Assembly (NCBI GenBank): GCA_963713615.1
Contig: CAVQMM010000001.1
Span: forward strand, 1,312,001-1,376,000
Reading direction: 5' to 3'
Origin: an uncultured Chlamydiae bacterium
GTDB lineage: Bacteria > Chlamydiota > Chlamydiia > Chlamydiales > JAJFMA01
Length of the DNA stretch: 64,000 nucleotides
Position numbers and translations under genes: made by a program. The notes under the pieces are model-generated. The model searched no databases and was not told where the DNA came from. It was given only the letters and a program-made list of their open reading frames with translations. Shown in pieces: positions 531-41,878 of this stretch; position 1 is the first letter of the stretch; each line of letters opens with the position of its first letter.

Positions 531-1118
531 GAGGTAATTGCAGAAGTCCGATTTTCCGAATTCAATTTCCTGAAAGTCGGATGCCGGTGAAGAGAGAGCC
601 ATTCCCTTCCCAGGCCCGAAGGGTCGATAATGCAACAGGCCATGGCATCGCCATGGTATATGCCAAAACGGTTTTAGCAGCCTGTAGGGCTGCCATAAAG
701 CGCATGCATAAATGGTGTTTGTAAACTGGCGTCTTGTAGCAGTCCTTCAGACTGCGAAATCCCTTCCTGGCATATACCATGGCGATGCCACATAGGCCTC
801 AACCTAACAGGTCTTTTGAGCTTATATCTCAATGACTTAGGACTTCACAATCGTATCTCGGCGCGCAGCGCTTTGGAGTGCGGTCGCTTGCGACCGCTTT
901 TCGTTCCTTGGGACGGCAATGCTAAACGGCATTGTATGGATTCGTCGAAGGCTGCATGTACTAACTATTTTACCCTTAGGGAATTATAGTAATGCCGTTG
1001 CACACGACCGTCGCAAGGAACCCAAAGCGGTCGCAAGGTAAGCGTCAATTGAAGCCACCTTTTTCGTAATTCCGCGAGGTTCTAAGTTTTCTCCATGACC
1101 CTAACCATGGAGATACTA

Positions 1119-1676
1119 ATGGATTTCAAAAGGAAGCGTTCTGAGTGGGCTCGACGCATAGACCAATGGATGGCGAGCGGTCAGAGTGGCCGCAGGTGGT
1201 GCCTAGAGAACAATATAAGCTACCAGCAGCTCTTGTACTGGTACCAACGCTTTAAAGTTAGCCCGCCCGACCACATTTCCTCGACGGGTTGGATAGACAT
1301 TACCCTGCCCGAGCTCAAGCTTTCGCTTGATCAGAAGAGCGTCTATCTAACCCTAAAGTCTGCGAGCAAAACTCTGAGGTCGTCATATCAGAAAAACAAG
1401 GGTGTCTTTCTCTATCAAGAGCCGATCGATATGCGAAAGGGATTTGAGTGCTTGAGCAATCTTGTTGACAGTTCGTTCTCGGGCGAATTTACCTGCGGGG
1501 CCTACTTCGTTTTTTTAAATCGTCGTAGAAATCTAGTGAAGGTCTTTTACTGGGATGGTAATGGTCATGCCGTCTGGTACAAGCGACTTGAAAAAGGAAG
1601 TTTTCGCAATGGAAGCATTCCAGATTCCGCTATCGATCGTCGAGAATTTCTAATGTTGTTGGAGAGTAGTCATTGA
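1119..1676 (+). CDS. IS66 accessory protein, TnpA-TnpB fusion
   Basis: N-terminal W...SGQS...WC.....S...L.YW (TnpA-like HTH) in frame with DMRKGF..L...FVF.NRRR..VK..YWDG.G...WYKRLEKG.F (IS66 TnpB); GGAG before ATG 1119. Confidence 0.85.
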   Translation: MDFKRKRSEWARRIDQWMASGQSGRRWCLENNISYQQLLYWYQRFKVSPPDHISSTGWIDITLPELKLSLDQKSVYLTLKSASKTLRSSYQKNKGVFLYQEPIDMRKGFECLSNLVDSSFSGEFTCGAYFVFLNRRRNLVKVFYWDGNGHAVWYKRLEKGSFRNGSIPDSAIDRREFLMLLESSH

Positions 1677-1720
1677 GCCTAAAATCCTAAAAACAATGTG
1701 CATTTTATTAGATAAAATAC

Positions 1721-1749
1721 TTGATAATAGAGGGGGTCTGTGATATGAT
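1721..1749 (+). promoter_or_regulatory. sigma70/sigma66-like promoter for tnpC (same sequence at 37829-37857)
   Basis: TTGATA-17 nt-TATGAT ending 9 nt before the tnpC ATG; no obvious Shine-Dalgarno. Confidence 0.55.
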
Positions 1750-1758
1750 TTAGAGCAT

Positions 1759-39411: not shown

Positions 39412-39896
39412 ATCGCCAGATGGCCTCAATTGACGCTTACCTTGCGACCGCTTTGGGTTCCTTGCGACGGTCGTGTGCAACGGCATTACTATAATTCCCT
39501 AAGGGTAAAATAGTTAGTACATGCAGCCTTCGACGAATCCATACAATGCCGTTTAGCATTGCCGTCCCAAGGAACGAAAAGCGGTCGCAAGCGACCGCAC
39601 TCCAAAGCGCTGCGCGCCGAGATACGATTGTGAAGTCCTAAGTCATTGAGATATAAGCTCAAAAGACCTGTTAGGTTGAGGCCTATGGGGCGATGCCATG
39701 GCCTGTTGCAATCTCGACCCTTCGGGCCTGGGAAGGGAGAAAAGCCTGTCTTTCCAGACAGGATAGTGCCATACCATTTAAGCTCTCCAGAATCGCCTTC
39801 TCACAAAAAAAAGTGATTTTTTTCCAAAGAATCGATCCATGAGAGCCCAAATACTTCTGCAATTACCTCTTATGGACAGAGGTCCATTTTTGTTCA

Positions 39897-41285
39897 TTAC
39901 TTGATATTGACCATTTTCTTGGGATCGACGATTTCATCGAATCGTTCGGCAGACAGAAAGCCAAGCTGAACGGCGGCTTCTTTTAAAGTAGCGCCCTCGG
40001 CATGCGCCTTCTTGGCGATCTGACAGGCCTTGTCATAGCCAATTTCACTGTTTAATGCGGTGACGAGCATCAAAGAACGATTCACGTGATCGGCAATAAC
40101 ATCTAACCTGGGCTCCAGACCCCGCACGCACCTCTCAGCAAAACTCTTAGAAGCATCGCCCAATAGCCGAATGGACGTCAAAAGGTTGTAGATCATCTGT
40201 GGACGAAACACATTTAACTCAAAGTTGCCTTGCGATCCTGCGATAGCTATAGCGGTGTCATAACCCAACACCTGCACAGAAACCATTGTGATCGCTTCAC
40301 ACTGCGTCGGATTCACCTTTCCAGGCATGATCGACGAGCCTGGCTCGTTGGAAGGCAGCTCGAGTTCCCCAATACCACTGCGAGGACCCGATCCCATCCA
40401 ACGTATATCGTTAGCAATCTTTATCAAGCTGCATGCGATGCGTCGCAACATACCACTAGCTTCCACAATGCCATCGCTGGCTGCCAATGCCTCAAATTTA
40501 TTCGGAGCCGTAATAAACCGATGTCCGGTCAGGTCACTCAAAATCTCCGCCATACGTGCCGCATAGCCCGCCGGGCAGTTAATTCCTGTGCCCACCGCTG
40601 TGCCGCCCAAGGCTAGCTCAGACAAAGGCGGAAGCGAATTTTCGATGGCTTTTATGCCATGATCGATTTGACTGACATACCCCGAAAATTCCTGTCCCAA
40701 CGTCAGAGGCGTGGCGTCCATCAGATGTGTGCGGCCAATCTTAACGATATTCATAAAGGCTGCTGAGCGCTCTGCCAAAGCGTCGCGCAGCCCTCGCAAT
40801 GCCACCAATAACTTATCTCTAATGGCCATGGTCGCCGCTATATGCATCGCTGAGGGAAAAACATCGTTCGAGGACTGCGATTTGTTCACATCATCATTGG
40901 GATGGATAGGCGTTTTAGACCCGAGCTGGCCTCCGAGCTTTTCGATAGCGCGATTACTGATGACCTCGTTGACGTTCATATTCGATTGTGTGCCAGACCC
41001 TGTCTGCCATACCACGAGTGGAAAATGAGCGTCTAGCTCACCAGAGAGAATCTCATCACACACTTCAGTGATGATCTTTTTCTTCTCTTGAGAAAGCAGG
41101 CCCAGTTCAAAATTGACCTGGGCAGCTGCTTTTTTGATCAATACCAGCGCGTAGATGACTTCAGGAGGCATACGCTGTTCGCCAATCGGAAAATTCCGAC
41201 GTGAACGCTCCGTCTGCGCACCGTAGTACTTGTCAGCTGGTACGCTTACCTCTCCGAGACCATCGCTCTCAATACGTGTGGACAT
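39897..41285 (-). CDS. fumC: fumarate hydratase class II
   Basis: [53 protein letters not shown]. Confidence 0.97.
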
Positions 41286-41377
41286 ACAACCTCAAAAAAG
41301 TAGTTAACAACTTGGAAAGACAAAAAGGACCAAAGGGACATAAAAGACTTGTAGAACGATGCCTCCTGAGTCCTTTA

Positions 41378-41811
41378 GAGGTAATTGCAGAAGTCCGGTT
41401 TCCGAAGTCAATTTCCTGAAACTTGACGGCCGGCGAAGAGAGATAAGCGATTCCCTTCTCAGGCCCGAAGGGTCGATATTGCAACAGGCAGGGGCATCGC
41501 CCTGGTATATTCCAGGAAGGGATTTCGCAGTCTGAAAGACTGCCATAAGGCGCTTGCATAAATAGCGTGTGAATACAGACGTCTTGTGGCAGTCTTTCAG
41601 ACTGCGAAATCCCCCTTGGCATATACCAGGGCGATGCCCCGGCCTGTTGCAATATCGACCCTTCGGGCCTAGAAAGGGATAAAAGCCTGTCTCTCCAGAC
41701 TAGATAGTGCCATGCCATTTGAGCTCTCCAGAATCGCCTTCTCGCATAAAAAGGTAACCTTTTTTTCTGAGAATCGATTCTCAAGGGCTCAAATAATTTT
41801 GCAATTACCTC
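41378..41811. mobile_element. GAGGTAATT-MITE copy R6 (A end - symmetric D variant - B end)
   Basis: TIRs; ttta duplicated (41374-41377, 41812-41815); inside the GGAC/GTCC array at 41313-41847. Confidence 0.88.
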
Positions 41812-41878
41812 TTTATGTCCTTTTCGTCCCTTTGGTCCTTTTTGTCCTTCCAAGCCAGACAACGCCCCACAAAGGAAC

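Follow-up and report, generated by a model that had tools for sequence, protein, structure and literature searches.

The 64,000-nucleotide stretch of DNA analyzed here (the window) belongs to the 3.97-Mb genome of an uncultured Chlamydiae bacterium (G000; 3 contigs, 99.1% complete), looks chlamydial in its genes and contains members of a family of MITEs (miniature inverted-repeat transposable elements), several of which lie in inverted arrays of 9-mer units. These MITEs have probably been spread by an IS1182-like transposase that cuts beside two GWC half-sites (W being A or T) and duplicates the spacer between them, the arrays serving as ready rows of targets. The MITEs would be the non-autonomous part of the system, with 15- to 17-bp ends matching those of an IS1182-like DDE insertion sequence (IS) of metagenomes; the transposase would cut next to each half-site so that a spacer of four or five bases is duplicated, and would once have been present in the G000 lineage and since been lost. 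The elements have terminal inverted repeats (TIRs) and target duplications, are short and multicopy without a transposase of their own, and share their ends with autonomous IS. The pattern of ends and flanks described below suggests that the family has been mobile by the reading of half-sites, and that the transposase itself is what reads GWC.

The genome has 259 strict ends of the GAGGTAATTGCARAA type, which form 106 inward-facing pairs less than 6.5 kb apart, and a perfect 4-bp direct repeat flanks 41 of these pairs. Once tandem duplicates are set aside, a 4-bp duplication is present in 34 of the 83 unique strict pairs that remain, whereas 10,000 shuffles gave 4.7 on average and 14 at most; counted as 81 orientation-unique pairs, 38 have a duplication, of 4 bp in 34 cases and of 5 bp in four. 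The sequences flanking the 259 ends have G at position -8 in 217, A or T at -7 in 228 and C at -6 in 230, and are A/T-rich from -4 to -1. The trimer GWC, with a background of 2.5% per position, begins at -8 in 206 ends, at -9 in 23 and at both offsets in none. GTCC at -8 (93 ends) and GGAC at -9 (87 ends) place the same GWC trimer at -8 to -6, which makes the target a symmetric GWC-N-[spacer]-N-GWC whose period is nine. The length of the duplication matches the spacing: pairs with GWC at -8 on both sides have a 4-bp duplication in 26 of 56 cases (none is listed with 5 bp only), pairs with GWC at -9 on both sides have a 5-bp duplication in four of five, mixed pairs have a duplication in none of three, and pairs with one end lacking GWC have a 4-bp duplication in eight of 17. 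Two 432-bp copies that are 100% identical have duplications of ATAT (C1:636275) and AAAAT (C1:1649121), and two copies have 13-bp (4+9) duplications.

Such 100% identical copies with different flanks and duplications (the identity clusters leave out IS66-bearing copies) bear out the proposal, made in the original prediction from the window alone, of independent insertions that obey one target rule. The rule had been written as GTCC-WWWW-N-GTCC, which is one case of the symmetric GWC-N-[4 or 5]-N-GWC, but strict WWWW does not hold: the 34 4-bp duplications comprise 14 different 4-mers, 25 being entirely A/T and nine containing G or C. A proposed association of B-type ends with aaaggac arrays and of B'-type ends with tggac arrays did not extend to the whole genome, where the counts are 22 aaaggac and 29 tggac versus nine and 18 (Fisher p=0.47). 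Among the 401 genomes of the order, four contain the exact 17-mer end: it has many copies in G000, G002 (27) and G322 (42) and a single one in G026. Apart from G000, genomes rich in these ends bear Chlamydiae or Parachlamydiales titles. Other genomes have a 4-bp duplication in 12 of 19 unique small pairs, 10 with GWC at -8 on both sides, among the matches listed; several of these loci share a contig prefix and represent one organism.

The arrays consist of GGACnnnnn units in inverted runs; GWC recurs in them every nine (sometimes 10) bases, and they therefore amount to rows of ready target sites in intergenic DNA. Strict arrays number 109 in G000 and six to eight in shuffled sequence. They bracket two four-helix-bundle-suffix genes (TIGR04258) in G000 and are also free-standing; this gene is found in 34 of 400 genomes of the order, and a three-unit array adjoins it at 26 of 28 mapped loci (two of 30 being unmapped), compared with none of 65 control windows, which were somewhat shorter than the test windows. 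At loci L053-L070 of G002, approximately 14 solo ends have the TIR's own GTCC continuing directly into a 9-mer array, which is probably due to microhomology deletion and possibly to carriage by the array system. Three records titled Lentisphaerae (L119, L140, L192) have the same end followed by 7-mer repeats (CAGAATT-like), and one 140-bp pair among them has, by eye, an apparent 5-bp duplication.

A scan of metagenomes for the end plus the flank rule found 36 loci, five of which have an open reading frame (ORF) with DUF772 and DDE_Tnp_1 domains between the ends; a scan of the genome collection with the bare 17-mer gave mostly chance coding matches among the matches listed. Of these autonomous elements, L185 and L191 belong to the same kind and are complete at 1,432 bp; the other three (L163, L170 and L195) are partial, and the kinds are 51-89% identical to each other. 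Their 15- to 17-bp ends match the MITE ends and have the same GWC register; the five were selected for GWC at one end, and the unselected second ends of L185 and L191 also fit. The window MITE R6 has a B end that, beyond the TIR as well, aligns (77% identity over 86 nt, E 1e-11) with the L170 end lying downstream of the gene, and L191 is located just upstream of a four-helix-bundle gene. Residues D135, D258 and E319 of the transposase are invariant in 43 aligned homologues and may be the catalytic triad. The structure of the transposase is modelled confidently and matches only DDE transposases and integrases, weakly; a fold search with the model returned nothing at E<=0.001. The family comprises 640 proteins at E<=1e-40 and 741 50%-clusters at E<=1e-30. 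Nine plasmid records at 34-37% identity include eight named IS1182 or IS1182-like ISUnCu17, and the NCBIfam IS5 models score 21-57 bits against cut-offs of 110-140. The earlier guess of IS5/IS1182-like ends was well placed, as autonomous DDE elements have the same 15- to 17-bp ends and their relatives are annotated IS1182.

Of 400 genomes of the phylum, 16 have homologues of the transposase. In G126 the elements are bounded by GAGGGAATT ends, and four of five copies show 4-bp duplications, with no GWC. A sister IS in G342 (L382-L391) is 1,462 bp long in all ten copies, which occupy the loop of one REP-like palindrome (REP, repetitive extragenic palindromic), and each of the 10 full copies examined (10 of 10) shows a 5-bp duplication, the target being GTC-C-TGAAA-G-GAC; to judge by these copies, it was probably active recently. 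On a midpoint-rooted tree of 17 proteins (L201, from which no ORF was extracted, was left out), the repeat-targeting elements fall in a single clade (100/100), to which neither the untargeted 4-bp duplicators nor ISUnCu17 belong.

The elements of the window, which contains seven exact matches to GAGGTAATT and seven to AATTACCTC, are as follows.

468..530, + strand: 9-mer inverted array (aaaggac arm, loop, gtcc arm), with R1 inserted in its gtcc arm.
531..3577, + strand: MITE R1, A end left and B end right; duplication TTTT, target GTC-C-TTTT-G-GTC.
1038..3332, + strand: IS66 (TnpB and TnpC) in the REP2 palindrome inside R1; 8-bp duplication GTCGCAAG.
8476..8965, + strand: R2, a B-B MITE with a ggac arm on one side and a gtcc arm on the other; GWC at -9 and -8, duplication absent.
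14560..15111, - strand: MITE R3, containing both a REP1 and a REP2 module; target GTC-C-AATT-A-GTC, part of a tggac array, with AATT duplicated.
32160..32769, - strand: MITE R4; B' end with one mismatch pair, A end (right) truncated and running into a tggac array.
36953..39869, + strand: MITE R5; duplication TTAT (ATAA on the reverse strand), target GAC-T-TTAT-G-GAC.
37146..39440, + strand: IS66 copy in REP2 inside R5, 99.7% identical to the IS66 of R1; 8-bp duplication CTTGCGAC.
41320..41849, no strand: 9-mer inverted array around R6, its ggac arm at approximately 41320-41350 and its gtcc arm extending to 41849.
41378..41811, + strand: MITE R6, 434 bp, in the most frequent size class; target GTC-C-TTTA-T-GTC, with TTTA duplicated.
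41452..41678, no strand: REP1 inverted doublet inside R6, sharing approximately 80% identity (218-226 nt aligned) with the repeats next to the Y1-transposase gene C1:3243391-3243843.
41727..41811, - strand: B end of R6 (TIR and subterminal hairpin), the segment that aligns with the L170 end.
57191..57474, + strand: R7, a solo A end (GTC at -9), after which comes another palindromic repeat.
61071..61479, + strand: MITE R8, with atypical subterminal regions; duplication AATT, target GAC-G-AATT-C-GTC.

The empty sites originally reconstructed for R1, R3, R5 and R6 are all exact. A one-sided fit had been reported for R4 and R8, and this is correct for R4, with its truncated right end, but not for R8, which fits the rule on both sides. 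R1 and R5 are approximately 3 kb long because each holds a separate IS66; R1 is 744 bp after subtraction of the IS66 and one of its 8-bp repeats. Site-specific IS66 elements are unusual; in G000 as a whole, IS66 is in REP2 in 15 of 16 full copies, an element with a 545-aa DDE transposase is in REP2 in six of six copies, and IS110 is at one REP1 position in eight of eight left junctions. The IS66 inside R1 is a passenger, not the transposase of the MITE: although it lies between GAGGTAATT ends in two window copies, there is next to no chance that it is the autonomous partner, and as mobiliser it is refuted by its own GTAAGCGTC ends (GTAA) and 8-bp duplications, its occurrence in either orientation within REP2 and its presence outside MITEs.

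Genome-wide, 78 copies are shorter than 1.1 kb, with size modes of 430 bp (29) and 750 bp (22), and long copies contain other IS or host genes. A 430-bp copy begins with an A end (approximately 70 bp), continues with REP1, an inverted doublet, and closes with a B end that has a subterminal hairpin; copies of the 750-bp class contain a further doublet, REP2. These REP-like interiors match repeats that flank Y1-transposase genes, REP1 at C1:3243391-3243843 and REP2 at C1:3256585-3257175. Only the latter gene passes NF047646 (83.7 versus 80), and the former is just above the IS200 model. Within 600 bp inward of an end are 230 of 274 REP1 copies and 163 of 359 REP2 copies. In other genomes, identical 17-bp ends surround unrelated hairpin interiors of 69-379 bp. 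Convergent genes flank 32 of the 81 unique pairs. G000 has six Y1-transposase genes (C1:1042747, 1465781, 1580931, 3243391, 3256585 and 3872945), five of which have their own distinct palindromic repeats. It also has tandem runs of five to nine MITE copies (C1:476526-478848, 1173286-1175608, 2273505-2280484 and 2600817-2603361) in which the spacer is constant, 43 bp or 22 bp, and composed of array arms and loop; a 5.4-kb segment next to one run is duplicated (99.7%) next to another.

Other repeats are present in the window as well. Further multicopy palindromic families are found at 8005-8351, 17138-17303, 55323-55395, 56949-57155 and 58049-58190, the pair at 8005-8351 being within a long ORF called at 7123-8361 (start as called). 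GxxExxY (PF13366) genes of G000 (C1:1855144-1855536 and C1:1921739-1922134) have their own short flanking repeats, and copies of one of these repeat families are in the window (24397-24760 and 19864-19898).

Several results weigh against the proposal that an IS1182-like transposase reads GWC half-sites. No 4- or 5-bp duplication is present in 43 of the 81 unique pairs, 30 of the 259 ends lack GWC at both -8 and -9, and the 5-bp class of G000 consists of five pairs. There are 234 sites matching the target rule in coding DNA, and the reading of sequence is inseparable from recognition of hairpins or selection against insertions in genes. The NCBIfam IS1182 model NF033551 gives the transposase 59-70 bits against a cut-off of 270, and therefore the elements are filed as IS1182-like rather than as members of the family. 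The ten G342 copies all lie in one repeat family and therefore represent one target type. L185 and L191 have no direct duplication, only inverted 4-mers with reciprocal flanks; they may be two true copies, with duplications of TAAA and TTTA, between which the flanks were exchanged through recombination or an error of assembly. No clean empty site was found in another strain: the congener G003 is too distant, with arrays at two of 25 orthologous sites, and one low-support joint in the reads of four sequencing runs, skipping 41349-41825 with 35 other letters, is not used as evidence.

Nor was the transposase found where MITE ends are numerous: G000, G002, G322 and G401 yielded neither a homologue nor a remnant, although the last three are drafts that may have IS copies unassembled. 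Searches of G000 for the cognate transposase gave a best E of 0.011 by tblastn and no hit by alignment search, and a 121-sequence hidden Markov model run on its six frames gave a best E of 3.1 (positive control 4e-32). As candidates, PF05598, PF13586 and PF13751 were rejected for want of matches in G000, and the 31 PF01609 matches belong to multicopy families with other ends or, in the case of the single-copy C1:155438, have unrelated ends. This absence suggests loss of the partner. The earlier proposal of mobilisation in trans by a DDE transposase is thus favored by the autonomous relatives in metagenomes, but not as a present-day process in this genome, where the transposase was not found.

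Of the two outcomes named as telling against the original prediction, namely most copies lacking a 4-bp duplication or flanks without GTCC/GGAC enrichment, the first is seen by a small margin: copies without a duplication are a slight majority of pairs, but most retain the GWC register, mostly between syntenic genes. A ggac arm and a gtcc arm flank 15 AA and eight TT pairs in which the array loop is missing; arm complementarity in these loop-type copies is weak (AA p=0.095, TT p=0.027). Arrays and four-helix-bundle genes are both present in G003, but the 2.33 Mb examined (of approximately 3.2 Mb, with 1,142 orthologues) contain no copy of the MITE. Compared with G003, the neighbours of 25 copies without a duplication are adjacent in 15 cases, separated by breaks in four and on another contig in six; for copies with a duplication the numbers are 11, none and six, and for control element-free gaps longer than 300 bp they are 191, 48 and 87. 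The neighbours are adjacent about as often as the controls, and therefore most copies without a duplication are local events, seemingly by local loss of the loop. Long-range rearrangement was rejected as the main cause of missing duplications, since synteny is about as frequent as for the other copies; mismatched array types in seven of 81 pairs point to some exchange. Such copies would have arisen locally once their two ends adjoined half-sites that are not neighbours, through loss of the loop or through one unit gained, giving 13 bp. Three routes would be equally compatible with the data: one-step use of non-neighbouring half-sites, later one-ended re-attack, and recombination between two insertions in one array, which would explain the tandem runs too. 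IS1272 replaces inverted repeats without a duplication (PMC5678879), and duplications are lacking where movements of IS are linked to deletions (10.1101/2024.06.02.596822).

It is unlikely that what the transposase recognizes is instead the arrays' shape (hairpin or cruciform), or a host or four-helix-bundle protein bound to them, with the register merely reflecting the array period. IS1272, of the IS1182 family, targets inverted repeats of differing sequence, which it replaces without a duplication (PMC5678879), the R6 region folds far better than shuffled sequences (z -21.8), 23 of the 38 duplicated sites have more GGAC or GTCC within 40 bp, and the G236 relatives are positioned after GCCC rather than GWC. 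Recognition of shape does not, however, account for the reading of GWC in both unit orientations, to which the 93 GTCC and 87 GGAC ends attest, with element orientation within the array unit unbiased (11 versus 10), nor for the 15 of 38 duplicated sites with little array context, nor for the use by the G342 sister IS of the same motif in a non-tandem palindrome.

Still lower probability attaches to a history of few true insertions, after which most copies would have spread as passengers of an array- or REP-dispersing system, by recombination or by gene conversion. The Y1-transposase and four-helix-bundle genes are present and intact where the cognate transposase is not found; the tandem runs have a constant spacer; 15 unique copies fill the loop between arms, the position of the four-helix-bundle gene at C1:1850780; and the G002 solo ends continue directly into arrays. 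Passive dispersal nevertheless fits poorly with near-identical copies (in small clusters) that have unrelated flanks and different duplications, with the diversity of 4-mers among the duplications, and with the location of REP1 mostly inside the MITE, as expected if the MITE carried REP.

A more specific version of half-site reading by an IS1182-like transposase is possible but doubtful, according to which two subunits read GWC half-sites independently, one step duplicating four, five or 13 bases or replacing a repeat loop; the clade would have specialised on the repeat shells of other selfish systems (the 9-mer arrays of four-helix-bundle genes and the loops of REPs), and the 17-bp ends would repeatedly have taken up unrelated REP doublets, building a four-layer nest. 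The system is of interest for its compact DDE transposase (approximately 365-375 aa), which is RNA-independent and combines very short ends with a short target rule, and as a natural set of insertions whose duplications vary in length with the spacing of the target, giving a handle on how DDE enzymes set the stagger of their cuts and a possible account of IS copies without duplications. The four-helix-bundle 9-mer repeats, although little studied, appear to have had the abundance and stability needed for the specialisation of an IS clade on them. The 78 copies shorter than 1.1 kb amount to approximately 45 kb of hairpin DNA placed between genes, which offers landing sites to other IS.

Members of IS1182 have varied, often palindromic targets, and IS1397 belongs to the IS3 family. 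The nearest annotated relatives of the transposase are short IS1182-annotated proteins (ISUnCu17-like, on Comamonas pBHB and Acinetobacter plasmids) with whole-protein identity of 34-37% and the same DUF772 and DDE_Tnp_1 architecture; the Comamonas element has GAGGCTCTTGCAGAA ends and a 4-bp duplication, as here, but the ISUnCu17-like elements stand in a separate clade, and no GWC target was seen for them or for the G126 elements. IS1272 of Staphylococcus resembles some of the copies described here in having an inverted-repeat target and, at times, no duplication, but its target has no common sequence and is removed whole (PMC5678879), whereas the GWC register is retained here and about half of the copies have 4- or 5-bp duplications. 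IS that target other repeats are known (PMC1525189, PMC3184786, PMC2817692), and IS1397, ISKpn1, IS621 (of the IS110 family; PMC3184786), ISPpu9/10, ISPa11 and others are likewise specialised on the intergenic repeats of another family (PMC1525189, PMC3184786). The REP-targeting IS named here are of the IS3 or IS110 family and use stem-loop REPs, in contrast to an IS1182-like element and MITEs on the 9-mer tandem arrays of four-helix-bundle genes. A literature search, outside which lay most subscription journals, ISfinder and the supplements, gave no description of this IS group or its MITE, of targeting of four-helix-bundle arrays, or of half-site spacing as what sets the length of the duplication, and no mention of ISUnCu17. 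The Correia and RUP MITEs are also short, non-coding, TIR-bounded and multicopy, with duplications, but are IS630-derived (PMC2817692), whereas the interior here is a captured REP-like doublet that is wholly different between genomes sharing the 17-bp ends. With the REP/RAYT systems (REPIN, BIME) the elements share interior modules that match repeats flanking Y1-transposase genes; these modules are cargo here, and the outer ends and duplications belong to a DDE system. The elements thus work like REP-targeting IS and MITEs, with a partner that is IS1182-like and not, by the curated model, a formal member of that family.

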